DNA of 64,000 bases, taken from positions 255,130,001-255,194,000 of the forward strand of contig OZ024740.1 in assembly GCA_964016885.1 (NCBI GenBank), in the 5' to 3' direction. This document shows, one piece after another, positions 2,590-61,620 of the stretch. Origin of the DNA: Eledone cirrhosa (Eukaryota). The notes below the pieces were generated by a model, which ran no database searches, had not been told where the DNA came from, and worked only from the letters and a program-made list of their open reading frames with translations. Positions within the stretch are counted from its first letter, which is position 1; each line of letters starts with the position of its first letter. Position numbers and translations under genes: made by a program.

Positions 2590-3360
2590 CAATAATATTA
2601 AATAAATGGAAACTATATTTATAAAACCATATTTATTCTATTATATATATTTGAAGGGTACCAAAACTTTGGTACGCCCTCATCAGATAAAATACAAAGT
2701 TTGTTTTATAAATATTGACATATCCAGGAAGAAGATGTTTGAACTGTTAAGAACTTCTTCCTGGATATGTCAATATTTATAAAACAAACTTTGTATTTTA
2801 TCTGATGAGAGCGTACCAAAGTTTTCGTACCCTTGAAATATATATAACAGAATAAATATGGTTAAACTTTGGGAGGGTCATGTTGAAAATAAGAAACACA
2901 CGCACCAGTTGCTTTCACTTCAATTTATTATAAATTTCCGGTTGGTTGGTTGCTTCCACAACCGGATGGTTGTTCATATATTGTCAAAGTTCTTTCGTCA
3001 CACATTCTGTGAAGAAAAGAATCCCCAGTCACTGAAGAGGTCGCAGAATGTGTGAAGAAAGAACTTTGACAATATATGAACAGCCATCCGGTTGTAGAAC
3101 CAACCAACCAACCGGAAATTTATAATAAATTGAAGTAAAAGCACTAGTGCGTGTGTTTCTTATTTACAACATGACCCTCCCAAAGTATAACAATATCGGT
3201 TTCAACACACGTTTTCAGCTAAAGAATCTTGCTAAATATAGTTTCCATTTATTTAATAGCATTGAATATTATACTCCAGAAAAACTGTCTAGTGCTTCAA
3301 ATTAGTTATAAACATATATATTTGTTGAATTACCAACTAATTAAATATCCCTTTTGCTTA
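2590..3360 (+). mobile_element. Family D fold-back PLE 3'-end element, interrupted by a family A fold-back (2870-3235)
   Basis: Inverted arms 2625-2735 and 2755-2865. The sequence resumes at 3236 after the insert. HHR-like motif at 2794-2854 (CTGATGA...GAAA TATATA TA). Confidence 0.7.
2870..3235 (+). mobile_element. Non-autonomous fold-back copy of the pLTR of the intact PLE (family A)
   Basis: 3015-3235 is similar to 11350-11605. 2870-3010 is its inverted partial copy. HHR at 3028-3070. Confidence 0.85.
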
Positions 3361-3548: not shown

Positions 3549-4745
3549 CAATATAAAACATAGCTAAATATTTGGAAAGTCTCCTCAAGAAATGCAAAAA
3601 AAATTATGTAAATATAGGTAAAGGTAATACAATAGACATATAAAATATATAAAAAAATTTTTAAGAAATATAGTTAGGTGTGTGTATATGTATGTATATA
3701 CACTCACAGATGTACATATGTATGTACAAATGTGTGTGTATAGTGAAAATGTGTGCGTAAATATATATATGAGGGTAAGTATATCTGTGTATATGTAACT
3801 ACAGACACAGACATGAATGTCCGGTTGACAGATATACAGAAAAACAGGGTATTAGATACATTATAAGAATATGAAGGCACGCGTATAAACACACACACAC
3901 GCGCGTACACTTATATGCGGAAGAAAAAGAGGTAAGGGAGTCTAATAGTAAAAAGAAAGTATCATTCTCGATATATTTATAAAAATGGAACAATAATTTA
4001 GAAAGAAAATTGCGAAGTAAAGAAAACAAACAAGGTACACGCGTACATACACACATATATCTACAAGAAACGTATATCTATAAAATATATATATATATAT
4101 ACACGCAAAACGTGCAGACAAAAGCGTATGCAAGTATATATACACACACAGGATGCACACATATACATACATACACCTCGCCCCATGTATATCTAATCAC
4201 GCGTACGTACGCGACTGTATACTCAGACACACATACACACACATAAATATATACATACATATATACATACGCACACATACACATCCATACATTCAGTACG
4301 TACACACACACATACACATACATACACTCACGCACGTTGACCCGCTTACATGCGCACACATAAAAATAAGAATGTAAAAAAATAGATGTAAAAACACAGA
4401 TATAAAAACACACACACATACACATATATATACACACGCACGCGCGCGCACATACGGAGGCGTTCGTGTACATATACAGAAAGTATACACACATAAAGAC
4501 GCTCAGACACATAGATACAGGGTGTAAAACGGCCTTGTGAATAAGTGAGTACAAATATAAAAAATATAAGAATGGCTGCGAAATAACAGAAAATATCTGG
4601 AGTGGAAAACGCAAGTGACTACTGTAATCAGGTAGTGAAAAAAATAGGGAAGTAAAAAGTGGAAAGTGAAGATATTAGGTAAGTGAATCGGAGAATAAAG
4701 GGGGGGGGGGGTTAGTGGTGGATGTGAAGTAAAAAAAAAAAAAAA

Positions 4746-4889: not shown

Positions 4890-5735
4890 ATGAGCTGGAA
4901 AGCGGGTGTGAATTCATGTGTGGGCAACTGGTGAAAATTTTTGTCTTTGTGTTTAGGCAGGTCTTTGGTGATTTAAGTTTTGCAAAATCCAATATTTTTC
5001 ATTTATACAGAGCGTGCATTTTCTTGTTCCCCTTGCATATTCTTTAGATTGGTTCAAATGTGACCAATCCAATTTATATTGGATACCTTGGTCTTTCAAA
5101 TCCCATATTCTGCTAGCCAGAGCTGTTGTAAATCTTTTTTCTGGATGTCAAAAGGATGCGACATGTGAGTAATAACGCGTTTTGAATTTGTCTTGCGTCA
5201 TACCCACATATCGTTCACTGGTGGCTGGTTGGTTGTTGCTGATGGTTGTCACTTTAGCCGCATATACAATGGATTTGGTGTTGCATTTACCTTGTAATGG
5301 GCATTCACTTTTGATTCTAGAGGAGCAATTTTGATGTTCTCTAGATGATTTTTTGTTGATGATATAGGATTTAATAGGGGGACCGCACGAGTAGCTAATT
5401 TTGACACAGTTTCTATTAAAGATCTTATAGTATCTATGTGTTCTAGGGAAATGTTTATCTAAGAGCTCTAGGAATTTTTTGCCTACATTAGTTTTAACTG
5501 CTAGAGAGTAGGGGTGTGTGAACCAGATTATTTTTCTTTTCCTGTTTTTATGTTTAATAGAGTTAGTATAGTTGTGTATGTATTTAATCGGTTCGCTAAA
5601 ACCGCTATTTTGGAGGGCTTTATTATAGTAGGGGGATGCCTTATTGAAAATAGCTTCTGAGGAAGAGAGGGTGGAGATCCTACGGCTAATATTAGGGATA
5701 AGGATTTTAAAAACTATAGGAGGATGGCAAGAGCC

Positions 5736-5742
<7 letters not shown>
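4890..5742 (-). pseudogene. 5'-truncated Penelope-like element fragment (RT thumb/linker and GIY-YIG)
   Basis: Manual minus-strand translation gives INKGSCHPPIVFK, IIWFTHPYSLAVKTNVGKKFLELLDKHFP, KIFNRNCVKISYSC, CPLQGKCNTKSIVYAAKV and YVGMTQDKFKTRYYSH. Its 3' UTR probably runs to the HHR at 3479. Confidence 0.85.
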
Positions 5743-5773
<31 letters not shown>

Positions 5774-5774
5774 A

Positions 5775-6966
<1,192 letters not shown>

Positions 6967-7239
6967 AAGCCAAATTTTAAACATTTGACTTATTTATTTT
7001 ATTTTATTTTACATTACTCCGGAGTAACCAAACCAACCTGCGCACTTCGTTGAGTGCTTCAATCTGCATACTGAGGTGTTGGTATACAACTAACATATAC
7101 TAAATAAAAAATATATATATATTTATATATATATATATATAAATATAAATTCAGCGAGAATCGTATTTCGGCTGTTAGAAAAAGCGAAACGAAACGCAAA
7201 ATCGTAGAAATGCTGGCATATACATATATATATATATAT

Positions 7240-7353
7240 AAGTTGGAATAGAATGAAACGAAATTTCATTTCTCACTCTTATACGGCACTTACTTAAATG
7301 TAAGTATGTATGTATACGTACATACATATATGTATACAGACGTACAGTAGCAT

Positions 7354-7396
<43 letters not shown>

Positions 7397-7830
7397 CAGG
7401 CACACATATATATATGTACGTATCATTTTAGCGAATATTTATTATAACATTCGCTTTGTTCGCTTGTAAACAAACGGACAGCCTGATTTATACCGTACGG
7501 TGTTAAGGCAACCACGTCACCTTTTTGTTCAACACTGACACATGAACGATGTACTAGTTTCAAGCTTGTTAGCTATCGTCAGCACCGTATACCCTTCTGC
7601 CAAATGGTTGAACGTTCGAAAGTATATACTTTCCTTCTGAAAATTAACGGCTGAGCAGCCTAATTTGCATATCGAGTGAGTTCAGTCGGCCAGGCGCACC
7701 GAAAACGATAAGTTGGAATAGAATGAAACGAAATTTCATTTCTCACTCTTAGTACGGCACTTACTTAAATGTAAGTATGTATGTATACGTACATACATAT
7801 ATGTATTGAGACGTACAGTAGCATGTATAT
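7240..7830 (-). mobile_element. Family B tandem array, left part (continues at 11665-12638)
   Basis: AGTTGGAATAGAA at 7241, 7711, 11981 and 12460 (period 470-480). One HHR per unit. Confidence 0.85.
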
Positions 7831-7961
7831 ATATATATATATATATATATTGTTATACTTTGGGAGGGTCATGTTGCCAATAAGAAACACACGCACCAGT
7901 TGCTTTCACTTCAATTTAATTTAATATATATTTATAAATTTACAAATTTACAAATTTCTGG

Positions 7962-10900
7962 TTGGTTCAAAATCAAAAACATCAAAAACAAAAAAACAAA
8001 AACAAAAGCAACAATATACGCACACACATATACAACACACATCCCAGCAACAACAGACACACACACACAAACAACAATAACAACAACAATAGCAACATAC
8101 CCAGATACAACACCAACAATAGCAACATACCCAGATACAACAGACACGCAGACACAAACAACAATAACAACACACACGGAGACAACAATAACAACAACAC
8201 ACACATCAACAACAACAACAACAGCAACATACCCAGATACAACAACAACAGACACGCAAACACAAACAACAATAACAACACACACAACAACGATAACACA
8301 CACACACACGGAGACAACAACACACATCAACAACAACACACATCAACAACAACAACACACACACATTCAATGCCTCTCACCACCACTACAATCTTAACAA
8401 ACACACAGACACAGAAAACAAGTAATGACAGTAGCACAGAAATCAGAGAAATAAGAGAAAGTAATAGGATTAAAAGGAGTAGGGAGACTAAGGACAAAGA
8501 GAATAACCAAGACGAACACACAGACACACAAAATAGGGTAGATAACAACATTGAGCCAGTGGAAAGAGACAGGAGTAATTATGAGAGACATAGAAACAAC
8601 CATGAAGCTGAGGCTGCTGCTGTTGGTGGAAATAGAAACAACACAACTAACAATAGCACTAGTACACATAAAGCAGCAGCCTGGAACTCTCCGTTTTATA
8701 ACCCCTCCGATAAATCATTCGACCTACGACGAGTCCACGCCACGACTTTGCCATTTAACAAACGCACGCAGTTGCCGTCGCAGGTCGATGAACAAACAGA
8801 AGCACAATTTAGTATAGCTAAATCCGAACTTAGAAATATTATAGAACAGTATAGCAAGAAGCATAATAGAATAGAGGCCCAGCAACTGGGAGAAGAATCT
8901 GCAAATGGCTTGCGTAAGCTCATGCAGCGCTCGCGTAATGGAGAGATAGCATGCTTTCCAACAGACAAGTCTGGCAGAATGTCGGTTGACAGCCTGCCAA
9001 ACTACATCCAGGCAATGCAACCCCACATCACTAACACAAGAGAGGTAACACCACAGGAGCATGAGGATAGAGAAAAAACCCTCAATGCCCATATGGTGAT
9101 GTGGACAAATATAATGCAGCCCAACAAAAGGACTGCCAACAACTTCCAGGCCTGGAACAATGACGTGCCGGCGTTGTATGGGCTTCGAAAAGACCATAAA
9201 ACGGGCTGGGACCCTGTCGCGGGACCACCAACACGGCCAGTCTGTGGGGCTAACATTGCTAGTAACTACAGACTGTCCTACTTCCTCTCCCTGATCATAC
9301 GCCCCATCATTGAGATGTCCCCAGATGTGTGTGACAGCACGGAGGACCTCCTCAGCAGAATCGGCGCGGGTAACCGATCTGGGGACCTAACAAACTGCAT
9401 AATAGGCAGTATGGATGTTGTGTCCCTGTATCCATCTATTGACGTGGATTTTGCTGTGGAGAAATGCGTCGAAATGATCAGCGAGAGCAAGGTTGAGTTC
9501 CGTGGGATTGATACCAGTGAGCTGGGACTTCTACTTAAGCTTACCCATAGTAATAGTTACCTAGACACTTATGACCTTAGCAACCTGTGCCCTACAAGAC
9601 CAGCAAGAGGCAGACCACCTACCATTACCTCAATGGCCAAGAAAACCCACACAGATAGATGGAACGGGTGGACCAGAGCCATACGGACACCCGAAAACCA
9701 CGATGAACTGAAGAAAATGATTGCACATGCGGTAGGGGCCAGCATAAAATTAACCCTTAAGGAACATATGTTCAAATTTAATGGTAAAACATATGCCCAA
9801 GAGGAAGGAGCAGCCATTGGTGTTAGCATTGCAGGCGACATAGCTAACTTGTTCATGGTATGGTGGGACAGTAGACTTAAACAAAAACTTAAAGAACAAT
9901 TAGAAGACAGCTTAACCCTGATAATGTACTCCCGCTACGTAGATGATATAAACATCGTAGTTAAGACACCCCCACTAAAGAACAGTCAGGAACCAGAGAA
10001 AAACACAATGGAAAGCATCCAGCAAATAGCAAACTCCATCCACCAGAGCATTAGAGTTACTATAGACTACCCAAGTAGACACCCCAACCATCGATTACCT
10101 GTACTAGACACAGAGCTCTGGTTAGATACTATTAACAACCAAAAACAAATCCTCCATTCCCATTATGCCAAACCCATGACTTCCAAACATCTGATCCACC
10201 GAAACTCGGCCATTTCGGACCATACCAAAATCAACATACTGATTGCGGATTTGATACGGGTGATGAGAAATGTGTCCCGCATGTGCAACCCCGAAGAACT
10301 AGAGAGACACATACAACACTTCATCCACCGTATGCAGTTCTCTGGTTACAATCAGAGAGATAGAATCAGAGTGTATAAAGGAGCCAGAACCAAATGGGAA
10401 AAAATGGTAAATAATGACATAAATGGGACCTGCCCCTTGTATAGGAGCAAATTTTGGAATAGAATAGAAAGAACTAAGAACAAGGCCAATAGAATAAACT
10501 CATGGTATGATAGCAATAAATACCAGAGTGTAATGTTCATCAATACAACCCCTAGAGGCGAACTAGCCTACAAATTTAGAAGGGCCCTAAATAAACATAA
10601 TCTCAATATTAAGATAGTAGAAAGACCTGGTACCTCCGTAAAAACACTTATTAGCAAGACATACCCGTTCCAAAGACCCTCATGTATAGATAAGAAATGT
10701 ATAACCTGTAAAATAAGCCCCCATATTAACTGTAAAACTAGAAATGTAGTATATAGCATAAGATGTACTGAAGGACAATGTAGAAACAAAAATATAGTGT
10801 ACATAGGTGAGACAGCTCGTAGTATAGGGGAACGAATAAATGAACACTGGCGAGACCTCCAAGATAGTAAAGAATCATCTGTGCTCTACCAACATGCTAA

Positions 10901-11066
10901 GATAGAACACAGGGGTAAATTAGAGAGCATAGAAATAAAAATAGAATCCACACACAAGAAAGACGCAATGTTTAGGCAAATTACAGAGGCAGTAAGCATA
11001 AAAGAATTAAAACCAAAATTAAATAGAAAATATGAGTGGAACAGCAACATCACAACTTACAATTAA
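7962..11066 (+). CDS. PLE polyprotein with reverse transcriptase, Cys-rich linker and GIY-YIG endonuclease (likely Naiad/Neptune type). First ATG at 8370; the 7962 start is a TTG inside the inverted pLTR.
   Basis: DKSG; LYGLRKDHK..GPPTRPVCGA; GSMDVVSLYPSI; QEEGAAIGVSIAGDIANLFM; YSRYVDD; LPVLD; CxxxxCxxC..C; NVVYSIRC..VYIGETARSIGERINEH; EAVSI..PKLN. No internal stops. Confidence 0.95.
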   Translation: MVQNQKHQKQKNKNKSNNIRTHIYNTHPSNNRHTHTNNNNNNNSNIPRYNTNNSNIPRYNRHADTNNNNNTHGDNNNNNTHINNNNNSNIPRYNNNRHANTNNNNNTHNNDNTHTHGDNNTHQQQHTSTTTTHTHSMPLTTTTILTNTQTQKTSNDSSTEIREIRESNRIKRSRETKDKENNQDEHTDTQNRVDNNIEPVERDRSNYERHRNNHEAEAAAVGGNRNNTTNNSTSTHKAAAWNSPFYNPSDKSFDLRRVHATTLPFNKRTQLPSQVDEQTEAQFSIAKSELRNIIEQYSKKHNRIEAQQLGEESANGLRKLMQRSRNGEIACFPTDKSGRMSVDSLPNYIQAMQPHITNTREVTPQEHEDREKTLNAHMVMWTNIMQPNKRTANNFQAWNNDVPALYGLRKDHKTGWDPVAGPPTRPVCGANIASNYRLSYFLSLIIRPIIEMSPDVCDSTEDLLSRIGAGNRSGDLTNCIIGSMDVVSLYPSIDVDFAVEKCVEMISESKVEFRGIDTSELGLLLKLTHSNSYLDTYDLSNLCPTRPARGRPPTITSMAKKTHTDRWNGWTRAIRTPENHDELKKMIAHAVGASIKLTLKEHMFKFNGKTYAQEEGAAIGVSIAGDIANLFMVWWDSRLKQKLKEQLEDSLTLIMYSRYVDDINIVVKTPPLKNSQEPEKNTMESIQQIANSIHQSIRVTIDYPSRHPNHRLPVLDTELWLDTINNQKQILHSHYAKPMTSKHLIHRNSAISDHTKINILIADLIRVMRNVSRMCNPEELERHIQHFIHRMQFSGYNQRDRIRVYKGARTKWEKMVNNDINGTCPLYRSKFWNRIERTKNKANRINSWYDSNKYQSVMFINTTPRGELAYKFRRALNKHNLNIKIVERPGTSVKTLISKTYPFQRPSCIDKKCITCKISPHINCKTRNVVYSIRCTEGQCRNKNIVYIGETARSIGERINEHWRDLQDSKESSVLYQHAKIEHRGKLESIEIKIESTHKKDAMFRQITEAVSIKELKPKLNRKYEWNSNITTYN

Positions 11067-11363
11067 GGACAAAATGAAAACACACACACACATAGAACAA
11101 ACAACTTACAATTGAAAACACACACAAAATGAAAACACACACAAGACAAAATGAAAACACACACACACATAGAACAAACAACCAACCAACAATAAATAAA
11201 TAAATAAACAAACAAGTATAAATAGAAAAATAGAAAAATGAACACAAACACACACAGACACCCGGATGTGGCGCATGCGCAAACTGAGCACGCAACCCAG
11301 ACACAAACAAAATGGCGTAGGATAGAAGAAAGGAAAGGCACAGAAACGAAGAAAGAAATCCCC

Positions 11364-11408
11364 AGTCACTGAAGAGGTCACAGAGTGTGTGACGAAAGAA
11401 CTATGACT
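11364..11408 (+). ncRNA. Minimal type I HHR in the PLE 3' pLTR (family A; copies 3028-3070 +, 45067-45109 +, 44725-44767 -)
   Basis: AGTCA CTGAAGA G GTCAC...GTGAC GAAA GAAC TA TGACT. Confidence 0.85.
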
Positions 11409-11619
11409 ATATATATATAAACAACTATCTGGTTGTGGAACCAACCAACCAACCAGAAATTTATAAATTTGTAAATTTATAAATATATATTAAATTAAAT
11501 TGAAGTGAAAGCAACTGGTGCGTGTGTTTCTTATTGGCAACATGACCCTCCCAAAGTATAACAATATCGGTTTCAACACACGATTTCAGATAAAGAATCT
11601 TGCTAAACAAATTCAGAAA

Positions 11620-11664
<45 letters not shown>

Positions 11665-11669
<5 letters not shown>

Positions 11670-12092
11670 GCACACATATATATATGTACGTATCAGTTTA
11701 GCGAATATTTATTATAACATACGCTTTGTTCGCTTGTAAACAAACGGACAGCCTGATTTATGCCGTACGGTGATAAGGCAACCACGTCACCTTTTTGTTC
11801 AACACTGACACAGGAACGATGTACTAGTTTCAAGCTTGTTAGCTATCGTCAGCACCGTATACCCTTCTGCCAGATGGTTGAACATTCGAAAGTATATACT
11901 TTCCTTCTGAAAATTAACGACTGAGCAGCCTAATTTGTATATCGAGTGAGTTCAGTCGGCCAGGCGCACCGAAAACGATAAGTTGGAATAGAATGAAACA
12001 AAATTTCATTTCTCACTCTTATTACGGCACTTACTTAAATGTAAGTATGTATGTATACGTACATACATATATGTATACAGACGTACAGTAGC

Positions 12093-12148
<56 letters not shown>

Positions 12149-12566
12149 GCACACATATATATATGTACGTATCAGTTTAGCGAATATTTATTATAACATT
12201 CGCTTTGTTCGCTTGTAAACAAACGGACAGCCTGATTTATGCCGTACGGTGTTAAGGCAACCACGTCACCTTTTTGTTCAACACTGACACAGGAACGATA
12301 TACTAGTTTCAAGCTTGTTAGCTATCCTCAGCACCGTATACCCTTCTGCCAGATGGTTGAACGTTCGAAAGTATATACTTTCCTTATGAAAATTAACGGC
12401 TGAGCAGCCTAATTTGCATATCGAGTGAGTTCAGTCGGCCAGGCGCACCGAAAACGATAAGTTGGAATAGAACTAAATTTCATTTCTCACTCTTAGTACG
12501 GCACTTACTTAAATGTAACTATGTATGTATACGTACATACATATATGTATACAGACGTACAGTAGC

Positions 12567-12611
<45 letters not shown>

Positions 12612-12638
12612 CAGGCACACATATATATATGTACGTAT
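11665..12638 (-). mobile_element. Family B tandem array, right part (two ~478-bp units)
   Basis: Direct repeats 11665-12142 and 12143-12615, each with an HHR and an internal (TA)n. Confidence 0.88.
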
Positions 12639-13707
12639 CGTTTATTACTGCTATATATATTTCGGTGACAGCCATCTTTGGCTGTGACCTCTTCAGGCAG
12701 TCCGAATTAGTGTGGTAGAGGTGTATAACTTTGTCAATACTCTGATATTCCCAGTTCCTGGTTGGGTTGTTATTTCACTGAGGAACTGGATCATATCTAG
12801 ATATACACCTCAACAACATGTGTACTCGTCTCTACCACACTAATTAGGACTGCCTGAAGAGGTCACAGCCAAAGGTGGCTGTCACCGAAATATATATAGC
12901 AGTAATAAACGAAGACAAATTTTAAACATTTGACTGATTTATTTTATTTTATATTTATATATATATATATATATACATATGTATGTGTGTATATATATAT
13001 GTATGTGTGTGGGTGGGTGGGTTGGGGGTCTGAGTGTGCATGGATTTATACGTGTGTGTGTGTGTGTCTAGTCCCATATGCATATACTTTGTACATGCAT
13101 GGATGTATACAAGTGTGTATGTGTGTGTGTGTGTATGTTTACACCCATGTCCACATCATGTTTCCTCACTCGTCTGTATAGACACATATGTATGTATATC
13201 CTATGTATGTGTGTATGCGTGTATATATGTAAATATAGTTCCTTATGTATATGATTTTATATACACTCTGTATCTCTTCGTGTATAAATATCTTCCAAGT
13301 GCACTACCCCACCACCTCATTAACTCCTTGTAGCATGAGTCCCCTTAATAAACCCTTACGACACCCAAAACACCGCAATCTTTCATCCAGTATCATAAAC
13401 CGCACCACCACCACACCCACATGCGAAAACATTCTTTAGAATTAACCCACCAATCAAACTAAATTTCACTGACCAGCATATGTACATTAGATTTTCTCGT
13501 ACAACATGTATATTCATTCTATCATTACCACCAAAAAGGGTCTGACGAGCCGTTGATTACAGAGTCGGACTAGATCGATATAGATCGAACCTTGAGCTGA
13601 TCGGTGGCGAAACGCGCGTCACCAACCAATAAACGTAATGAAGGAGTAACCACTCGCCCTTGTTTTATTTTATTGCATGTATATATATATAGAGAGAGAT
13701 ATTTTTA

Positions 13708-16144: not shown

Positions 16145-16682
16145 AATAAACATAATCTGAGTTTTTCGAATATTAATAATAATATTCGATTCGTTTGCAA
16201 TTAAGCCTCTTTTTTAAAGAAGCCTCTTTTTTAAAGCCATGTCAGTAGAAAGAGCCTCTCATTGGCTCTCATTGGCATGCAAACGAATCGAATATTATTA
16301 TTAATATTCGAAAAACTCAGATTACATTTATTGTATTCAGCAATGTAGAGCGAAAAATATTTTTTTATTTGAATATAGCAAAGTCGGCCATTAATCGCTC
16401 GTATCAGTCACTGTATATTCTAGAAAATATCATATATTTTCACTATCTCTGACAGTTGGCAGGTGAACAGTGAACTGTACTGATGAAGGGTGATACCCAG
16501 AAACTTTAGTGTCTACAGTTCTGTTTACATGCTAACACAAGAGCAAAAATGAGGAGGTTATTCTTCTGATATGGCTTTAAAAAAGAAGCTTGTTTGCATA
16601 ATTGCAAATGAATCGAATATTATTATTAATATTCGAAAAACTCAGATTACATTTATTGTATTCAGCCATATAGAGCGAAATT
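16145..16682 (+). mobile_element. Family G element with inverted and direct terminal segments (related fold-back at 26838-27058)
   Basis: The CGAATATTATTATTAATATTCGAAAAACTCAGATTAC block is inverted at 16150-16200 and direct at 16285-16355 and 16610-16680. Confidence 0.7.
16473..16520 (+). ncRNA. Type I HHR, family G
   Basis: AACTGTA CTGATGA A GGGT-GAT-ACCC A GAAA C-TTTAGT-G TC TACAGTT, with a 7-bp stem I. Confidence 0.8.
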
Positions 16683-16696
16683 TATATATATATATA

Positions 16697-17030
16697 ATTT
16701 GTTTTGCAAGGTTTTTGATATGAAATCGTGTGTCGAAACATATATTGTTATACTTGGGGAGGCTCATATTGTTGTAATAATATTGCCAGAAATAATAACA
16801 GAACACACTCACTGTTTAGTTGGTTTTCGCTTCTGTATCTTTTATATCTCCATAATTAATTCATTTGGCCATCAACGTTTATCATGGATTGACCAACGGT
16901 TAAAAATACAGATTTAAATATATACATATATAGTCTATCAAAGTTCTTTCGTTGCACATCTGCAACTTCATCAGTGGTACTATTATGTTCCCTAATAGCT
17001 CTGTTGAAATGGTCATGTGCCTACAATGAA
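16697..17030 (-). mobile_element. Family E PLE 3' terminus with HHR (16936-16979)
   Basis: Homologous to 43205-43720. Minus: TACCA CTGATGA A GTTGCA-GATG-TGCAAC GAAA GAAC TT TGATA. Confidence 0.75.
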
Positions 17031-19612: not shown

Positions 19613-19927
19613 CTATCTATAAACTCTTCCTCCAAAGCACCTGAAACCCTGAAATGGCGTTGGTCCTTGAACAATATGCAGAAGTAGCCGTAAATAAAAA
19701 CAATCTCTGTTGTTGGGGTGGTCATTATAAACATGCCCAATAGCATTACTTACGTTGACTTCATGACCTTCCACTAAATGACCCTGCCTCCTTTGATTGC
19801 AGGTCTTGCAATTGGTCCAGGTGTAGTATGTTGGGATGTCAGCATATAGGAGAGATCGAAGAAATTCATCATTCTGGCAGAGTTTTAAAAAAGCAGTTAG
19901 AGTAGAGTCAGGTGGTGCTTGTGCCAA
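19613..19927 (-). pseudogene. Helitron Rep/helicase fragment
   Basis: TLTAFLKLCQNDEF..LLYADIPTYYTW..IGHVY..HP..CFYLRLLLHIVQGPTPF resembles the Helitron inter-domain region. Confidence 0.8.
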
Positions 19928-19929
19928 CT

Positions 19930-21459
19930 GATGAATAATATAGAATATGTAAATAATAACAATCCAAGTATTATTCCTAATAATAATAATAAAAATAATA
20001 ATAACATATATAAGAGTAACTCTAATAATTATAACTCAAACACACATACGTTAAATAAATCGAGAATACGAACTAGATCTAAACCAGTCATATGGTTTTC
20101 ACCCCCTGCTTCGGTCGCAGTTAAAACACCAATTGCAAAACTATTCTTTAAATCTCTTGACACCTCTTTCCCTACTCAACATAAATACCATTCCATTTTT
20201 AATAGACATACCATTAAATTCGCAAATTCTACAACCAGTAACATGGCCCAAAACATCGCCAAATTAAACGCCAAAATCCTAAAACCAAACCAACATAATG
20301 ATCATAATAATAGAGTTAACATTAATGATACTAAACCAAAATGTAATTGTAGAAATAAAAATAATTGCCCTTTGCAAAATAATTGTTTAGATAGTAATTT
20401 AGTTTATAAATGCACCGTAAAAACTGACCATAAAACATACAATTACATTGGATCAACCTCGTCCACAATCAAGTTTCGTTTCGCGAACCATAAATGCTCA
20501 TTCTCGAACTCTAAGAAGAAATCATTCACGTCTTTATCACAGCTCATATGGTCTTTAAAAGAGAAGAATTTAGAATACTCCATTCTTTGGACAAAACTTC
20601 GGAACTGTGGAATTTACCGCAACTCTAGTATACCAAATAACTGCCCGCTCTATACAATGGAGACTCTGTTGATTATTAATAATTATGAGACCCTAATTAA
20701 CAAAAAAGTGAATTATTCGCTAGTTGCGTCCATAAAGCTACGTCCACTTTTTAGCCTCACATAAAACGAGAAAGAAAGAACCAATAACAACTCGGTTACC
20801 AGGAATATATAATCAACAGTAAAAAACATCAATGGTCTTTAATATTGCTTTATTTTATAACTATCTATAGAAAAAACAACGTTAGAATGAATGACAATAT
20901 TTCAATTAACACGCCTAAACATTGATACACACGACATTATTTGTTAACTTTGATCAACACCATCATTTCATTATTTCTATCTATAATTTAGTACAATACC
21001 TAATCCTTACATATTTATGGAATTTATTTAACTGTGAATTTTTAATACATTTGTGATCTCTTTTAAATTTTAGTTTAATACCCAATCCATAAATTTTTAT
21101 GAATCTTATCTATAACTCCAAATTTTTAATGAGTTTTTGATTTATTATTTATAGTATAATATAGCATATATTTCTTTTAAATATACTTACTGTACTATAA
21201 AATCTAAATTTTGAGACGGATTCAAACATATATAAATGTGAATTTTTCGCTGTACTTTCGATCTCTTATTTATTTATAATATAATGTATTATAATATATA
21301 TGTAGTTATATATTGTATTTTATATATTTTTAAATATTTTAAAATATACCTACCACATTTCTATATATATGATTCAAATATAGAGAAAATATCCAAACTA
21401 AAAATTATTATAGACATTATTTTGAACTCTGTATTATCCATGCACTCATTGTTGTTTTT

Positions 21460-21499: not shown

Positions 21500-22486
21500 A
21501 ATGTAACACGTTGAACTCTACTTTATAAAATTATAACTGCTATCATTTACCTAAAGTATACTACACTAATAATAGCTAATATATATCTATATATATACAT
21601 CCCTATATCTAATAATATGTTCATATCTTGGTTGAAGAATAATTAGTACATTTACACCCAGTTATACATATGTATATATTTATCCTTAACATATTATTTT
21701 TATTTTTATCTTCGTCATTATTATTTACCTTAAACATACTGGCTCATTAATATATACCTATATACATAATAGTTATTTAAATATTTATAACAATAAGTAC
21801 TTCAAAAGCTTTACATACCTAATATGTTGGTATCTTTGTTAAGGTTTAAATTTAAGTAAATAATCAACAGTATAATATTTCATTCTTTATGTGCCAGCTA
21901 AATCCTTTAAATGTTATTCTCACAATTCAGAAGTTTAGAAATGATAACACACTTATCGAATTTATATAAATAATATATAAATAACTAGCAGATAATCCTG
22001 AAATCTGGAGTCTTCACCCTAATATTATAACCCCCCCCCCCACACACACACACTTTATTTTTCCCTTTATATAAATCTTTTTTCAGTGGCTATCACTGGC
22101 TGTTATGATTCATGAGACGTTTTCCTAGATATATTGTAGTATCATACACTTTAAAATTTTAGAACTCTTACAGTATGCAACGTTTTTTATTACTCACACA
22201 TTCTCTAATGAATTTATTACGTTTTCGCATTTTCTCATAGATGGGATATAAGTAAAATTTTCTATCGGGTTAATCACTACCTTGATTAAATCTTAACCAT
22301 TTAACATCTCAGGGTATGTCATATATCATTATATTTTGTCTGATGAGGATGTACTGTTGTACATCCGAAATATGTATAATAAAATGTAATTGATCAAAAG
22401 AATATCTATGTTATTAATACTTATATTTTAATATTAATAACTCCAGAAAATTATTTTCCGTTGAGTGCTTGCAATCTACTGTAAAA
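19930..22486 (+). mobile_element. 5'-truncated PLE: linker/GIY-YIG ORF remnant (19919-20764), ~1.6-kb AT-rich 3' UTR, HHR and tail
   Basis: VIWFSPP..IFNRHTIKF..CNCRNKNNCPLQNNC..NLVYKC..YIGSTSSTIKFRFANH..SLSQLIWSLK. HHR at 22333. Confidence 0.85.
22333..22385 (+). ncRNA. Canonical minimal type I HHR (family D type)
   Basis: ATTTTGT CTGATGA GGATGTAC-TGTT-GTACATCC GAAA TATGTA TA ATAAAAT. Confidence 0.9.
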
Positions 22487-26246: not shown

Positions 26247-26688
26247 ATTAAACAAATGGAAATTACATTTATAAAACCATATTTATTTCATTATATATAT
26301 TTCAGGGATATCATATTAAAAATATGGTATGCCCTCTTCAGACAAAATACAATATATAGACAGTTTTATAAATAAATTTGACATACCTTAGAGTTTACAA
26401 CTTCCATTTAAAAAGTTGTTACGGTAACAATTTTTTAAATGGAAGTTGTAAACTCTAAGGTATGTCAAATTTATTTATAAAACTGTCTATATATTGTATT
26501 TTGTCTGAAGAGGGCATACCATATTTTTAATATGATATCCCTGAAATATATATAATGAAATAAATATGGTTTTATAAATGTAATTTCCATTTGTTTAATA
26601 TCATTAAATACTCCAAAACCTGTTGAGTGCTTTTATATCAGTTATAAAATATTTACTCGTTGTAACCCAACATTTTAAATAAAACTTT

Positions 26689-32191: not shown

Positions 32192-34935
32192 GGAGGTGAG
32201 TTTTATTTATAATAAAGCAATGCAGATATCGGATAAGAAGCACTCTACAGTTTGTAGGACTGGAGTATACATAATATATAACATCAAAAGATGGTTAAAA
32301 GAGTTCCATGTATTTTATTATGCGCATTTCAAAAACAAATATCATCATGCAATAACATCAGATAAAATAGGAAGACATGATATGAAGGTTAAAAACACTT
32401 GTGGATAGTGCAGTTTTAAATCAACATATGAAAAGTAGTTTTAGATTGATGTGTAATATTGGGGAAATATTTTTTTGAGGGGGGTGGGGGGGTGGGAAGA
32501 GGAGGAGATGAGAGTAAAAAGTGGAGGGGGAGGAGTATAATGAGGAAGGATGAGATAGGAGGAGAGATGGGTGATAGAGAGAGAGAGATAGCTTTTATAA
32601 CTGAGAAAAATATATTGTTTTACATAGAGAGGTTGAAAAACCGTTGGAAGATAATGTATAAATTAAAAGAATTTGAAAATTAACGAAGAGAAAAATAATG
32701 TAAAGTTAAGGTTTGTATATTGAAGGGTTTAATAATATGTGCGATGAAAAGAAATTGTTAATATGTATTAAGAATAATATTTAAAGGTTTAATAATATGT
32801 GCGATGGAAAGAAAATGTTAATATGTATTAAGAATAATATTTAAGGGTTTAATAATATGTGCGATGGAAAGAAAATGTTGATATTTATTATTAAAAAAAC
32901 AAAAGTAATGTAAGTAAGGATATATTGTGAGATGAGCATGAATAAGTTAGATGAAAGTGAGAAAAAAATAATGAATAGAGGATGAATAATCTAACGTAAA
33001 AAAAAAAAATGTTTATGTTTACGAAGGATTTTTTCAAGGTGATATAAAGTAAGAATATATTGTATTGTGTAATAATTGTTTCTATGTTAGGCACAGTGAG
33101 AAAAGGTACAGATTAGGGGTTAGAAATTAAAAGAAAAAGAAAAGAAAAGGAAAAGGAAGAAAGGGAAGTGATAAATAGGAGTGATATAGAATGAGTAACA
33201 AGTATTATATAATGTATAATAAATAACTTTGAAATAAGGTAGAAAGATGGGTATATTTTTAAAGAAGTATATATATATATATGTGCCTTTGAGAAAAGGA
33301 TTCTGAATTGATAAAGTTTAGGATATTAGCTGTATACTTTATTGAATGTTCTGTGGAATTTATGCAAGCAGAGAGAAAACAAGTCAGTGCGTCTATTTAT
33401 TATAGAATCTAAATTAGAGATAATGGTAAATTTTTCATTTAGTCAGAGATTGCAAGTCTTGGATAGAGAACTGTTCAAGTATGAAGCAGCAGAAGAAACC
33501 TTTTTCCAAGAGATGTTATATTTAATATTTTTTGTCTTTCAAGGACCATATGAGTTCTGAGAGAGCCGTGTTGGTTCTTTTAAGTCGGCATAGCTCGTCT
33601 TTATAATTACCTTTCGTCTTTTAAATACCAACTTAAAAGAACCAACACGGCTCTCTCAGAACTCATATGGTCCTTGAAAGACAAAAATATTAAATATAAC
33701 ATCTCTTGGAAAAAGGTTTCTTCTGCTGCTCCATACTTGAACAGTTCTCTATCCAAGACTTGCAATCTCTGACTAAATGAAAAATTTACCATTATATCTA
33801 ATTTAGATTCTATAATAAATAGACGCACTGACTTGTTTTCTCTCTGCTTGCATAAATTCCACAGAACATTCCATAAAGTATACAGCTAATATCCTAAACT
33901 TTATCAATTCAGAATCCTTTTCTCAAATATATATATATACTTCTTTAAAAATATACCGATCTTTCTACCTTATTTCAAAGTTATTTATTATACATTATAT
34001 AATACTTGTTACTCATTCTATATCACTCCTATTTATCACTTCCCTGTCTTCCTTTTCCTTTTCTTTTCTTTTTCTTTTAATTTCTAACCCCTAATCTGTA
34101 CCTTTTCTCACTGTGCCTAACATAGAAACAATTATTACACAATACAATATATTCTTACTTTATATCACCTTGAAAAAATCCTTCGTAAACATAAACATTT
34201 TTTTTTGACGTTAGATTATTCATCCTCTATTCATTATTTTTTTCTCACTTTCATCTAACTTATTCATGCTCATCTCACAATATATCCTTACTTACATTAC
34301 TTTTGTTTTTTTAATAATAAATATCAACATTTTCTTTCCATCGGACATATTATTAAACCCTTAAATATTATTCTTAATACATATTAACATTTTCTTTCCA
34401 TCGCACATATTATTAAACCCTTAAATATTATTCTTAATACATATTAACAATTTCTTTTCATCGCACATATTATTAAACCCTTCAATATACAAACCTTAAC
34501 TTTACATTATTTTTCTCTTCGTTAATTTTCAAATTCTTTTAATTTATACATTATCTTCCAACGATTTTTCAACCTCTCTATGTAAAACAATATATTTTTC
34601 TCAGTTATAAAAGCTATCTCTCTCTCTCTATCACCCATCTCTCCTCCTATCTCATCCTTCCTCATTATACTCCTCCCCTCCACTTTTTACTCTCATCTCC
34701 TCCTCTTTTTCACCCCCCCCCCTCAAAATTTTTTTTCCCCCAATATTACACATCAATCTAAAACTACTTTTCATATGTTGATTTAAAACTGCACTATCCA
34801 CAAGTGATTTTAACCTTCATATCATGTCTTCCTATTTTATCTGATGAAAACACAAATGTTATTGCATGATGATATTTGTTTTTGAAATGCGCATAATAAA
34901 ATACATGGAACTCTTTTAACCATCTTTTGATCTTA
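32192..34935. mobile_element. Giant fold-back of a PLE 3' end (~1.3-kb inverted arms 32275-33588 and 33628-34935)
   Basis: The arms are near-identical reverse complements. The centre encodes a GIY-YIG C-terminus (TALSELIWSLKDKNIKYNISWKK..CNL). HHR at 34833-34903. Confidence 0.9.
34833..34903 (+). ncRNA. Type I HHR
   Basis: TATTTTAT CTGATGA [AT-rich stem II] GAAA TGCGCA TA ATAAAATA. The opposite-arm copy (32311-32370) has a deletion at the core/stem II junction. Confidence 0.75.
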
Positions 34936-43130: not shown

Positions 43131-43204
<74 letters not shown>

Positions 43205-43209
<5 letters not shown>

Positions 43210-43720
43210 ATACTTGGGGAGGGTCATATTTGTGTAATATTGCCAGAATTAATAACAGAACACACTCACTGTTTGGTTGGTTTTCGCTTCTCGCTGTCTT
43301 TTATATCTGCAATCTAACTTACTCGGTCCTCAATGTTGCCATTGACTGACCGGCGGTCAAAAATAATACAGATCCAATATAAACACAAACACATATATAT
43401 ATAGTTTAACGGGAGGAAACAATAGCACCACTGATGATGTTGCAGATGTGCAACGAAAGAACTCTGATAGACTATATATATGTGTTTGTGTCTATATTGG
43501 ATCTGTATTATTTTTGACCGCCGGTCAGTCAATGGCAACATTGAGGACCGAATAAATTAGATTACCGATATAAAAGACACAGAAGCGAAAAGCGAAAACC
43601 AACCAAACAGTGAGTGTGTTCTGTTATTAATTCTGGCAATATTACACAAATATGACCCTCCCCAAGTATAACAATATTTGTTTCGACACACGATTTCATA
43701 TAAAAAACCTCGCAAAACTA
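43205..43720 (+). mobile_element. Family E fold-back with HHR (43427-43468)
   Basis: 43205-43404 is inverted against ~43470-43673. CTGATGA T GTTGCA-GATG-TGCAAC GAAA GAAC TC. The tail resembles family A. Confidence 0.8.
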
Positions 43721-44542: not shown

Positions 44543-44575
<33 letters not shown>

Positions 44576-44578
<3 letters not shown>

Positions 44579-45320
44579 TTATGCTTTGGGAAGGTCATGT
44601 TGCCAATAAGAAACACACTCACCAGTTGCTTTCACTTCAATTTATTATAAATTAAATTTATAAATTTAGGAATTTATAAATTTCCGGTTGGTTGGTTCCA
44701 CAACCAGACGATTGCTGATATATTGTCAAAGTTCTTTCGTCACACATTCTGTGACCCCTTCAGTGACTGGGGATTATTTTCTTTGTTTTTGTGCCTCTCC
44801 TTTGTTGTCCTACGCCATCTTGTTTTTGCGTGCGCTGTGTGCTTAGTTTGCGCATCACAACTTACAATTAAGGACAAAATGAAAACACACACATAGAACA
44901 AACAACCAACCGGTAACATGTAAATAAACAAATAAATAAACAGATATAAACACACACAGACACCCGGATGTAACACATGCGCAAACTAAGCGCACAACAC
45001 ACACAAAAACAAAATGGCGTAGGACATAACAAAGGAGAGGCACAAAAACAAAGAAAAGAATCCCCAGTCACTGAAGAGGTCACAGAATGTGTGACGAAAG
45101 AACTTTGACAATATATGAATAATCGCAGCTTGTGGAACCAACCAACCAACCAACCGGAAATTTATAAATTCCTAAATTTATAAATTTAAGTTATAATAAA
45201 TTGAAGTGAAAGCAGTAGTTGCGTGTGTTTCTTATTGGCAACATGACCCTCCCAAAGCATAACAATATCGGTTTCAACACACGTTTTCAGATAAAGAATC
45301 TTGCTAAACAAATTCAGAAA

Positions 45321-45322
<2 letters not shown>
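44576..45322 (+). mobile_element. Non-autonomous fold-back derivative of the intact PLE (family A)
   Basis: 44854-45322 is similar to 11048-11622 (last codons, 3' UTR, HHR, tail). 44576-44854 is an inverted partial copy. Confidence 0.9.
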
Positions 45323-45405
<83 letters not shown>

Positions 45406-45988: not shown

Positions 45989-47322
45989 TGTAACAGTAGT
46001 GGTAGTTGTCACTGTTATTGCTATTGTAGCTCTTGCTGAGTTGTTGTAACAGTAGTGGTAGTTGTCACTGTTATTGCTATTGTAGCTCTTGCTGAGTTGT
46101 TGTAACAGTAGTGGTAGTTGTCACTGTTATTGCTATTGTAGCTCTTGCTGAGTTGTTGTAACAGTAGTGGTAGTTGTCACTGTTATTGCTATTGTAGCTC
46201 TTGCTGAGTTGTTGTAACAGTAGTGGTAGTTGTCACTGTTATTGCTATTGTAGCTCTTGCTGAGTTGTTGTAACAGTAGTGGTAGTTGTCACTGTTATTG
46301 CTATTGTAGCTCTTGTCGAGTTGTTGTAACAGTAGTGGTAGTTGTCACTGTTATTGCTATTGTAGCTCTTGCCGAGTTGTTGTAACAGTAGTGGTAGTTG
46401 TCACTGTTATTGCTATTGTAGCTCTTGCTGAGTTGTTGTAACAGTAGTGGTAGTTGTCACTGTTATTGCTATTGTAGCTCTTGCTGAGTTGTTGTAACAG
46501 TAGTGGTAGTTGTCACTGTTATTGCTATTGTAGCTCTTGTTGAGTTGTTGTAACAGTAGTGGTAGTGTCACTGTTATTGCTATTGTAGCTCTTGCTGAGT
46601 TGTTGTAACAGTAGTGGTAGTTGTCACTGTTATTGCTATTGTAGCTCTTGCTGAGTTGTTGTAACAGTAGTGGTAGTTGTCACTGTTATTGCTATTGTAG
46701 CTCTTGCTGAGTTGTTGTAACAGTAGTGGTAGTTGTCACTGTTATTGCTATTGTAGCTCTTGTTGAGTTGTTGTAACAGTAGTGGTAGTGTCACTGTTAT
46801 TGCTATTGTAGCTCTTGCTGAGTTGTTGTAACAGTAGTGGTAGTTGTCACTGTTATTGCTATTGTAGCTCTTGCTGAGTTGTTGTAACAGTAGTGGTAGT
46901 TGTCACTGTTATTGCTATTGTAGCTCTTGCTGAGTTGTTGTAACAGTAGTGGTAGTTGTCACTGTTATTGCTATTGTAGATCTTGCTGAGTTGTTGTAAC
47001 AGTAGTGGTAGTTGTCACTGTTATTGCTATTGTAGATCTTGCTGAGTTGTTGTAACAGTAGTGGTAGTTGTCACTGTTATTGCTATTGTAGCTCTTGCTG
47101 AGTTGTTGCAACAGTAGTGGTAGTTGTCACTGTTATTGCTATTGTAGATCTTGCTGAGTTGTTGTAACAGTAGTGGTAGTTGTCACTGTTATTGCTATTG
47201 TAGATCTTGCTGAGTTGTTGTAACAGTAGTGGTAGTTGTCACTGTTATTGCTATTGTAGATCTTGCCGAGTTGTTGTAACAGTAGTGGTAGTTGTCACTG
47301 TTATTGCTATTGTAGATCTTGC
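45989..47322. repeat. 56-bp minisatellite, ~24 copies
   Basis: Unit TGTAACAGTAGTGGTAGTTGTCACTGTTATTGCTATTGTAGCTCTTGCTGAGTTGT, with no spacers. Confidence 0.97.
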
Positions 47323-47891
47323 TCTTCTTCATGATTATGATGTCGTACTTTTTGATAACGCGGCTGATGTTGCTGTTGTTGTTATTGCAGTTGATGTTGT
47401 TGTTATTGTTGGTGTTGTTTGTGTTTGTGTGTTATTGTTTTGTTTGAGATGGATTAATGGGAAGAGATATGAGATTGCAGAAGGGAGGGAAAGAAGTGAG
47501 GGGAAACCTGACCGAACACCCCGGGAGCATTTAGTCCGTCCATCGGTTTGTTTGACCACTAAACAGAAGTTCTTCTAATGAGACCACAGATTATGGATAC
47601 ATAAATACACACACACACACTCACACACGTATATATATATATATCTAAATACAACTAAAACTCTGTGATTGTGTCTTCTCTGAAATTTAATATACCCAAA
47701 ATCGCGCATAATGGGTTAAATACTTTGAAAGGATGTTCATCCTGAAATGAGAATACAAGTGGAATAAAACAAGTTTCGCGTAAATCGGAACACGGGTTCC
47801 CAAGATATGGGTTTTTTCCGGGTACTTTCATAAATAGCGAGATATGAAGATAGAGAGAAAGAGATAGTGGTTGTGAGAGAGTAGATTGAAA

Positions 47892-48854: not shown

Positions 48855-48898
48855 TGCTTACAACTGTTTCCTCCAAACCGTTTGGATTCTTCAGAGCA
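48855..48898 (-). ncRNA. Type I HHR
   Basis: Minus: TGCT CTGAAGA A TCCAAAC-G-GTTTGGA G GAAA CAGTTG TA AGCA. Confidence 0.75.
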
Positions 48899-49338: not shown

Positions 49339-49771
49339 GATATTAACAAATGGAAACTATATTTATAAAACCATATTTATTTCATTATACATATTTCAAG
49401 GACACCAAGTTAAATTATGGTGTGCTTTCATCAGATAAAATATAATATAGACCAGTTTTATAAATAAATATTGACATACCCTTAAAGAATGCAACCATTA
49501 CTGTTGGAAGCTCCCGGATAGTAATGGTTGCATTCTTTAAGGGTATGTCAATATTTATTTATAAAACTGCTCTATATTATATTTTATCTGATGAAAGCAC
49601 ACCATAATTTAACTTGGTGTTCTTGAAATATGTATAATGAAATAAATATGGTTTTATAAATATAGTTTCCATTTGTTAATATCGTATTTTTACTCCAAAT
49701 ATTTGTTGAGTGCTTTATATCAGTTATAAAAATATTTGCTTGCTGTATCCCAACAATTTAAATAGAACTTT

Positions 49772-55759: not shown

Positions 55760-56130
55760 GAAAGCTAATTGAAATAAAAAAAGTGGTACCTCAAGGCCGT
55801 TACAATACCAGTCATTGTGGGAGCACTGGGAATGATCAAGAAAGGAACAGAACAGTATTTGAGGATGATTCCTGGTTTACCCTCTCTGCAAGAGGTGCAA
55901 AAAATTGTTTTGACTGGTAGTGCACACGTATTAAGAAGAACACTATCTCTTTGAGAATGATATCGTCCCCCTTCCCTCTTGTGTGGATGTGTGTGTGAGT
56001 AGAGCACTATCTCTGTAAGATTATATCCCGCTGTAAGAATGATAAGCTGTATTCAATGTGGTGTATTAACTGGCTTACCAATGTATACAATGCATTTATT
56101 TGCCCTAGGAGTCAGGAAAACACTCGGCAA
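55760..56130 (+). mobile_element. Dong/R4-like LINE 3' end
   Basis: AVTIPVIVGALGMIKKGTEQYLRMIPGLPSLQEVQKIVLTGSAHVLRRTLSL*. Confidence 0.8.
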
Positions 56131-56139
56131 TATCAGAAA

Positions 56140-57390
56140 CAATACTTAAGAACGGAATTGAATGCAAGGAATAGGATCGATGCCATAAACACGCTTGCCA
56201 TACCAGTAGTAACCTACAGTTACAATGTCATCAACTGGTCAAGCACAGAGATCCGTAGGTTCGATAAAAAAATTCGAAAATTCTTAACCATGCACAGAAT
56301 GCATCACCCTAAGGCAGATATAGATAGAATATATCTCCCTAGGAAAGAAGGAGGACGTGGGTTAATCCAGTTAGACATTGCGTTGAAAACTGCAAGAATT
56401 GGATTATCTACATATCTAAGGGAATCACATGATTGGATGATCAAACTCGTTTTGAAACACGAAAGCATCAAAAGATCATATTCCATTACAAAAGATGCCC
56501 AAAGATACAGTAATGGACTACAAATTTCAGAAGTCCCATTTACTGCTGAAATGGAAAACACAGAAAAAGCAAAGCAGGTAAAAGTAACTGCAAAGAAAGA
56601 ACTGCTACAGAAACTGGCTAAGAAATGGCAAGAAAAGCCTCTGTATGGAAAATACCCAGAGCGAGCTAACAATCCTGATGTTGACAAAACTTTAACCCAT
56701 CAGTGGTTGGCATCCTCTGGACTGAAATCGGAGACTGAAGGACTGATTATATCAGCACAAGATCAGTGTCTGCCAACAAAAAATTACCAAGCCAACATAA
56801 TAAAAAATGGATGCAGCCCATTATGCCGTGTATGCAAAAAACAACTAGAGACCATTGACCATATAATTTCAATGTGCAGTCCTATAGCTCCAACCGAATA
56901 CCTAAACAGGCATGACAGAGCTGCACAATACATACATTGGATAATGTGTAAGCATTTTGACCTGCCCCATCAAAAGAATTGGTGGGAGCATCAACCACCT
57001 CCCATATTTGAAAAAGATCACATCTCAATCTTGTGGAACTTTAGCATCCAAACAGACCGAAAAATAGATGCAAACAGACCTGATATAATATTGAAAGACT
57101 TTAAAAAGAGGGTATGCCTGCTAATTGATATGTCTGTTCCAATAGACAAGAATGTATCTATAAAAACATTTGAAAAATTGAGCAAGTATAAGGACCTGGA
57201 GATAGAAATTGGAAAAATGTGTAAATTGAGAACTAAAACAATACCAGTGGTTGTAGGCGCTCTGGGAATGATACCTAAGGGGTCTAATGATTACTTATCG
57301 CAAATCCCAGGAAACCCGCGTATAGGAGAAATACAAAAGATAGTACTAATGGGAACTGCCCATATACTAAGGAAGATTCTGTCAATATAA
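56140..57390 (+). pseudogene. 5'-truncated Dong/R4 LINE ORF (RT thumb, CCHC knuckle, restriction-like endonuclease)
   Basis: AINTLAIPVVTYS; YLPRKEGGRGL; CRVCKKQLETIDHIISMC; RHD; RPDII..IDMS..EKLSKY. Confidence 0.9.
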
Positions 57391-57533
57391 GTACATCACA
57401 AGTCTAAACACTAAAGATGCATGTGTGAATATGTATGTTCTTTCTTGAACATGGCGGACCTTGTTGTCTCTTGAGGTCACTGGTTGTGACTTGGTGATAA
57501 CTCGTATGAACATAAAGCAAGATAAATGCAACT

Positions 57534-57567
<34 letters not shown>

Positions 57568-57777
57568 TAATAATAGTACTATCTCAAAAAGTTTCCAGGA
57601 ATGGTTAAAGAAAATTGGCCCCACCACGCTTTTTGGAACGCTTCAAAAGGCATGCTTGCTGGGAACAGCAAGAACTCTCCGATACGTCCTGAATATCTCA
57701 GGCTGCAGGTAGTGGTTTGATATTCATTTCAACAAACTTTCCTGTTAACTAACATCAATGACTGAGACTCAAAGAAC

Positions 57778-57821
<44 letters not shown>

Positions 57822-59615: not shown

Positions 59616-59652
<37 letters not shown>

Positions 59653-61500: not shown

Positions 61501-61509
61501 CCTTTCCTA

Positions 61510-61547: not shown

Positions 61548-61620
<73 letters not shown>

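Follow-up and report, generated by a model that had tools for sequence, protein, structure and literature searches.

A Nematis-like Penelope-like element with a telomerase-sized fingers insertion and a candidate (TA)n specificity in Eledone cirrhosa

Penelope-like elements (PLEs) are currently arranged in eight clades, and in this scheme an insertion in the fingers of the reverse transcriptase (RT) is the mark of telomerase and of the elements with an N-terminal endonuclease (EN), and is described as absent from the clades with a C-terminal EN (PMC8557442). For canonical C-terminal-EN PLEs the same account gives no insertion in the fingers domain (IFD), with sporadic cases in Coprina only. How PLEs build tandem and inverted insertions, and how they choose microsatellites, is named as an open question (PMC8557442; PMC11167929). 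Here, we analyse a window of 64,000 nt (the whole stretch of DNA studied, to which all plain positions refer) from Eledone cirrhosa (GCA_964016885.1, contig OZ024740.1, 255,130,001-255,194,000, forward strand), in which a PLE with a truncated open reading frame (ORF) at 7980-11066 was found. Judged from its sequence and its copies, it is a putatively (TA)n-specific, apparently recently active, Nematis-like PLE with an insertion of the size of that in telomerase reverse transcriptase (TERT) in the fingers of its RT.

The Nematis clade was reportedly defined by Arkhipova in 2006. Its elements, as described in PMC8557442, share with ours a single ORF in the order RT-linker-EN, a reduced CX2-5CxxC linker, the CCHH residues and a hammerhead in the pseudo-long terminal repeat (pLTR), whereas our element has an insertion of ~70 aa between RT motifs A and B, an ORF of 1,268 aa, the motif DKS and an RT that branches apart from the short-linker PLEs sampled. 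Naiad and Chlamys share with it the (TA)n bias and a fingers insertion (PMC8557442), but they differ in domain order, CxC, DKA and hammerhead status, and their insertion is shorter. Telomerase RTs provide its closest solved folds, and their IFD has the same place and a similar length; however, our element also has an EN, and the likeness of the two insertions is one of place and length.

The Poseidon element PAc of Anolis resembles our element in two internal start sites of reverse transcription just inside the ORF, which set the tail, in an AT-rich target and, as proposed below for our element, in the cutting and extension of both target strands (PMC11167929). However, PAc starts without target homology, whereas each site here has ATAT at its end, a match to (TA)n; the distance between the sites is 60 nt, compared with tails of usually 30-40 bp (PMC11167929), an insertion uses one of each, and the clade of PAc has no zinc linker. 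One-sided tails have already been described (PMC3846280, PMC8557442). The Penelope families of Adineta share with our element such a tail, the ORF start within the pLTR, an inverted pLTR and Asn-rich in-frame inserts (PMC3846280), but they belong to the Penelope/Poseidon clade, and have no more than a short Cys-rich insert between motifs 3 and 4, in Pen3/Pen5a (PMC3846280).

The reverse transcriptase and its placement

The distance between motifs A and B is 135 aa in the window element and 133-139 aa in 72 of 72 aligned sequences. Among 146 further representatives, 72 could be parsed and all of them gave 124-166 aa, so that the region is long in 144 of the 144 sequences measured; in these further 72, an EN motif was found behind the RT in 39, none was seen in 32, and one was flagged in front. 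By comparison, the distance is 62-67 aa in Neptune, Hydra and short-linker PLEs (with one mis-parsed value of 93), and hand counts on Fig. S1 of PMC8557442 give ~88 aa for Naiad and ~122 aa for human TERT. The insertion itself (9490-9700, approximate limits, + strand) contains the conserved motifs ELGL.L.L, CP.R..GRPPTIT and RW.GW. In an AlphaFold model built from 72 relatives (predicted local distance difference test, pLDDT, 90.6) it folds confidently (83-98). The best fold matches of the model are telomerase RTs (Z 14-15.6, root-mean-square deviation, rmsd, 3.3-4.6, 272-378 residues aligned), while model residues 652-749 match the GIY-YIG domain of I-TevI (1ln0; Z 10.3, rmsd 2.1, 88 aligned).

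In a tree computed with the insertion removed, the 26 RTs with a long A-B region formed one long branch (Shimodaira-Hasegawa-like approximate likelihood ratio test, SH-aLRT, 96; stem 1.97), apart from the Neptune-type, Hydra and 24 unnamed short-linker rows, and four Neptune-type RTs from the Eledone genome fell on another branch. The lineage comprises at least 150 clusters among the matches listed at E<1e-100, with named matches in octopus and sea cucumber, and the closest named protein match to the window element comes from Octopus vulgaris (68%). Against Pfam, the window protein gave a sub-threshold RVT_1 match only, and the full-length protein passes neither the RVT_1 nor the GIY-YIG cut-off. 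A literature search, to which Repbase and the bioRxiv supplements did not belong, so that an earlier description is possible, found no lineage of PLEs that combines a C-terminal EN with a long insertion in the fingers.

The combination of a telomerase-related RT and a GIY-YIG EN in one ORF, together with partial tandems (pLTR), an inverted truncated copy and a one-sided tail, agrees with the Penelope-like identity proposed in an earlier reading of the window, made from the sequence only. That reading had favoured the Naiad type, for which PMC8557442 gives an N-terminal EN, CxC and DKA as defining traits, with canonical hammerheads lacking. Indeed, the motif A-B insertion and the (TA)n preference are Naiad traits in that account, and cephalopods contain Naiads. 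Neither trait is exclusive, however: the (TA)n preference is common to Hydra and Neptune too, and the A-B distance of 135 aa exceeds the value of about 88 counted by hand in the Naiad rows of Fig. S1. Moreover, the EN is C-terminal both in the window and in full-length copies (aa 1162-1255 of 1,268), neither EN nor CxC was detected in the N-terminal 244 aa of the latter (for EN, aa 1-254 were scanned as well), no CxC occurs upstream of the RT, DKS in the window and DKS or DKT in aligned relatives stand in place of DKA, and a complete minimal type I hammerhead motif is present. On domain order alone the Naiad assignment is refuted, and we consider it extremely improbable.

Other clades fit no better. 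The spacer between CxxC and GIY is 6 aa instead of the long one of Neptune, and the RT lies outside the Neptune-type branch; the traits of Hydra (CxCX5C linker, DKT, no CCHH, <3 kb) do not occur in this combination here; and the CX4CXXC linker at 10683 sets the element apart from Penelope/Poseidon, which has no zinc-finger linker. The C-terminal EN, CCHH and reduced CX2-5CxxC linker are, by eye, those of Nematis (Figs S2 and S7 of PMC8557442). It is a serious possibility, although we would not favour it outright, that the element is a plain member of this clade and that curated families already include a subclade with such a fingers insertion, since linker and EN resemble the Nematis_Pp/C4 rows (short CxxxxCxxC-6aa-C, IVERPG, HAKIEH). 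However, the Nematis rows of Fig. S1, like canonical PLEs (A-B 62-67 aa), show no fingers insertion, the 24 sampled rows with short linker and short fingers occupy a separate branch, and the full protein stays below both Pfam cut-offs mentioned above. The element is best called Nematis-like by its linker and EN, while its RT appears to represent a lineage apart, which is widespread and is marked by a fingers insertion of TERT size. Whether it stands for an unnamed ninth PLE clade of marine invertebrates, with a C-terminal Nematis-type EN, a telomerase-sized fingers insertion, 4-nt (TA)n priming at two alternating sites, hundreds of near-identical full-length units and strict microsatellite targeting, is a proposal that we put forward tentatively, with nearly as much confidence as doubt.

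The window copy and its full-length family

In the window, a single open frame extends from 7938 to 11066 on the + strand (1,042 aa stop to stop; 898 aa from the first ATG at 8370). It contains a low-complexity coding stretch rich in Asn, Thr and His (7992-8700), which is followed by the telomerase-like RT with motifs A, B and C and thumb (8961-10300; DKSG at 8961, motif A at 9411, GAAIG at 9807 and YVDD, motif C, at 9936), the CX4CXXC linker, whose short spacing to the GIY motif is of Nematis type as judged by eye against Figs S2/S7 of PMC8557442 (10683-10709), and the C-terminal GIY-YIG EN with CCHH and the R, H, E and N residues (10743-11024). The 3' untranslated region, or pLTR body (11067-11541, +), carries the minimal type I hammerhead motif (11364-11408, +), whose predicted cut lies 3' of 11403, whose stem III reads A-G-AA-C-U and whose loop is without self-complementarity; an Rfam scan reported no ribozyme at gathering score, this one included. 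The start of a next unit follows (11542-11622, +), with the ORF ATG at 11542, the short terminus at +26 (11567), a tail and the long terminus, which is at +81 here while +86 is the usual position in the family. Target (TA)n tracts border the element on both sides (7826-7850 and 11622-11666).

Hence the frame with its RT motifs, Cys-rich linker and GIY-YIG domain, the 3' hammerhead and the insertion into (TA)n were all correctly recognised in the sequence-only reading. Its description of the copy as intact, however, did not hold. The frame starts at a truncation junction (~7980), where the copy joins the full-length sequence at codon ~243 via an A-rich filler at the head-to-head junction (7968-7979, +, delimited by comparison with the full monomer), and 7980-11066, uninterrupted as far as the stop codon, encodes residues ~245-1268 of a protein of 1,268 aa. 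Thus the copy is 5'-truncated and lacks the first 244 codons and the upstream pLTR. The near-identical inverted arm at the 5' end was also rightly seen (7847-7967, - strand, 121 nt with one mismatch to 11447-11567, its outer end being a short, +26, terminus), but it is a second copy of the 3' end and not a promoter-bearing upstream pLTR. Since both the N-terminal domain and the upstream pLTR are missing, the window copy was probably dead on arrival.

Tandem copies elsewhere in the 3.0-Gb genome define a 4,279-bp monomer with the 1,268-aa ORF. Its ATG sits inside the pLTR, at the position matching 11542, and the N-terminal 244 residues, with an LPPKF motif among them, are present; a single-sequence fold of aa 1-254 was unusable (pLDDT 41). 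Near-identical copies occur across the genome: the best 40 of 3,398 candidates scored were all 99-100% identical, and the mean pairwise distance among 68 ungapped cores is 0.48%. The frame is kept open in 70 of 81 cores and in 22 of 37 full-span units, and exact 5' read-through junctions number 439, counting one 12-unit micro-tandem. Singleton variants comprise 33 synonymous and 96 nonsynonymous changes, while shared variants comprise 23 and 22 (p=0.003); the former look neutral and the latter purified. The divergence of copies, which the earlier reading had named as a check on activity, therefore suggests that the family was very recently mobile.

The micro-tandem just mentioned, a 46-bp tandem of at least 12 units built from the long-terminus junction of the element, lies at G000:C1:132947037-132947570, and pieces 99-100% identical to the element over 120-530 nt occur in three other organisms, which would point to close kinship or horizontal transfer.

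Termini, target and a proposed insertion mechanism

Counted from the ATG, the termini of the copies fall at +26 (n=51, +25 and +27 included) and at +74..+86 (n=63), and +26 and +86 are the sole positions within the initial 300 nt where an ATAT ends. Alternating TA (at least 10 of 12 positions) follows 104 of the 114 termini, compared with 5.1% of window positions, and 13,325 exact short-end junctions were counted genome-wide, older subfamily included, against 0 in the control. The expected (TA)n preference is thus borne out among the copies, and the protein qualifies as a good candidate RT-endonuclease with (TA)n specificity. Target-site duplications are unreadable in (TA)n, with one suggestive exception (L018), in which an interruption occurs on both sides, ~70 nt. 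When the ends of 50 inverted insertions were paired by script, 46 were short-long, 3 long-long and 1 short-short (p=2e-10).

This pairing of a short with a long end in inverted insertions is most readily accounted for by two priming events on a single RNA. In the mechanism that we propose, the EN would cut both strands of (TA)n, each 3'-OH would pair with the 4-nt ATAT at a site selected by the protein, and the two cDNAs would stop at random points and then be joined head to head through microhomology or slippage. By analogy with PAc, a dimer may carry out the reaction, and the fingers insertion would probably serve to keep hold of the very short duplex of primer and template, a role ascribed to the IFD in telomerase. 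The position of the terminus appears to be fixed, with the exact base picked by pairing, because a sister family keeps its long end at about +69 or +85 despite a different sequence, again with TA microhomology. A hairpin linking the two start sites had no support (z -0.5 to -0.7), and no two tandem copies of one hairpin following the two sites were seen, by eye only.

Could the inverted arms instead arise from one cDNA folding back on itself? Penelope palindromes were earlier ascribed to self-priming (PMC3846280), and such an origin would agree with the close kinship of the arms: the own partner arm is the closest sequence in 28 of 41 insertions, and private variants are common to both arms in 20 of 41, which indicates that both arms of one insertion come from one source. 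In a tandem copy (L066, G000:C1:2082500-2090500), the first cDNA also includes the tail of the upstream junction, as is seen among tandem copies. However, in 6 of the 19 insertions without a tandem junction the shorter arm holds the tail (+27..+86) that is missing from the longer arm, and therefore it cannot be a copy of the longer arm. The internal (TA)6 at 11409-11420, moreover, is used by none of the 114 termini. We thus regard a fold-back origin as improbable. It is likewise quite improbable that the (TA)n beside the termini was written by the RT, in that the enzyme slipped on AUAU as telomerase does, and was not there beforehand as the target. This would suit a telomerase-like RT with an IFD-sized insertion and the ATAT at the end of both start sites, and the flanks of the window copy do sum to ~70 nt, compared with 40-50 nt in other spacers of the array into which it is inserted; but the spacer hosting it is (TA)n in every other unit of that array, locus-specific interruptions are often repeated on both flanks, and direct copies without an inverted arm also show (TA)n at their truncated 5' end.

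The L066 copy carries ~30 A>G changes clustered in monomer positions 4048-4196, shared by its inverted arm and its upstream pLTR; the cluster looks like ADAR hyper-editing copied into DNA.

Taken together, we consider it probable that the window holds a truncated copy of a young, (TA)n-targeted family, inserted by two primings, with a Nematis-like linker and EN and with an RT from a separate lineage with a TERT-sized insertion. Several points tell against this joint reading. Our proposed step relies on pairing with the target, whereas PAc primes without such homology (PMC11167929). The pairing script missed one more long-long case (L068/L004), which was found by hand, and blast assigned +81 ends to +86. 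Gene conversion between the arms could also give their shared variants, and the two sites used need not be neighbours of one junction, because the inverted arm of L066 has the A>G cluster of the upstream pLTR. The copies sampled were the best-scoring candidates, which favours young, intact units, and present-day activity would follow from age alone. The RT tree came from a quick search with an unsupported deep node and with 10 rows dropped for unparsed motifs, and its rows are unnamed, so that named Nematis, Poseidon, Naiad and TERT sequences are not among them. As for the fold, Tribolium TERT (Z 14.0), which is not known to have the full IFD, scores nearly equal to human TERT (15.6); consequently, the fold scores do not show homology of the insertion to the IFD, and the likeness is one of place and length.

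Neighbouring elements and implications

The array hosting the window copy belongs to family A, whose left part (7238-7825, - strand) has a hammerhead at 7546-7582 and a long terminus at 7238, and whose right part (11667-12644, -), made of 429-nt units, has hammerheads at 11816-11852 and 12295-12331. Family A is, by its sequence organisation, a putative non-LTR retrozyme, that is, ORF-less tandem 429-nt units with (TA)n, each with a predicted type I hammerhead, as in described metazoan non-LTR retrozymes (PMC7229834; 10.64898/2026.07.22.740005); it differs from those in that its units contain (TA)n and serve as a target of the element, and it has no pLTR homology to the neighbouring PLE. Its largest array has ~30 units (L165-L166, G000:C28:19365500-19385300).

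The sequence-only reading had taken the element as the probable driver of family A. Mobilisation in trans by the protein of the element would agree with the ends of family A, which lie at ~60 and ~118 of the unit, a spacing of 58 nt; its insertions are in (TA)n, and in each of the 10 whose two ends were both visible a short end is paired with a long one. However, the two have no sequence in common (local score 20, shuffle mean 20.5), family A copies are older (95-97% alike), and the genome also contains no fewer than five Neptune-type families, along with a Hydra, a short-linker and a sister family. When family A was compared with eleven Neptune-type and short-linker copies, their 3' regions likewise gave nothing above shuffles. 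One Neptune family is also spaced by ~60 nt, in a single insertion (in the Hydra family the spacing is ~100 nt by hand count), and therefore the end spacing does not settle the driver of family A. We consider the element a rather unlikely candidate.

Two relatives of the 3' end noted earlier are real, but they are truncated copies of an older subfamily rather than non-autonomous derivatives. One (44573-45328, +, 82-85% to the element) is 5'-truncated and inverted, with the short end on the left and the long end on the right; it is assigned in this way because, among 19 copies of the 44950-45322 type in the genome, 10 extend at least 300 nt into an ORF ~90% identical to that of the element. The other (2856-3236, +, 76-80%) is a short inverted copy resembling the same subfamily. 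The inverted pLTR pair at 43202-43718 (+) belongs to the sister family, whose separate ORF, ~55-85% identical in pieces at the aa level, lies elsewhere; if the repeat at 43202-43718 and 16696-16771 is what had been called family E, then family E is the pLTR of this sister family.

Some further repeats were observed in the window. Fragments of a large, older Hydra-type family, with a CxCX5C linker and 99,981 first-look candidates in the genome, lie at 5148-5807 (-) and 19901-20764 (+), with a hammerhead at 22340-22388. Outside the window, the genome loci L217-L236 comprise the short-linker family and the five or more Neptune-type families, two of which have ORFs (938 and 1,096 aa). Another hammerhead-bearing inverted repeat family (6681-7110 and 12638-12955; motifs at 6909, 12647-12696 and 12854) flanks the family A array on both sides, where PLE-type elements are nested in one another's TA tracts. 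More hammerhead-like motifs occur at 26284-26562, 34841-34903, 49378-49644, 16480-16521 and 48855-48894, two of them as inverted pairs. Broken ORFs of the non-LTR retrotransposon type (RVT_1, zf-RVT), which contain internal duplications, lie at 55999-63808, and a 56-bp tandem repeat (24 copies, 98% matches) at 45989-47323.

The window copy is thus an ordinary, dead insertion, and it is the lineage that is of interest. The question whether the IFD was ancestral to both PLEs and TERT is touched by a large lineage that departs from the fingers-insertion rule; this lineage is also easily missed, because it falls below the Pfam cut-offs for RT and GIY-YIG. For the question of how tandem and inverted insertions are built and microsatellites chosen, the family is an unusually clean system. 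Some of its copies are intact, its two start sites are sharp and its target is simple, so that in vitro work could address separately whether priming is guided by homology, what the linker does and what the insertion does.

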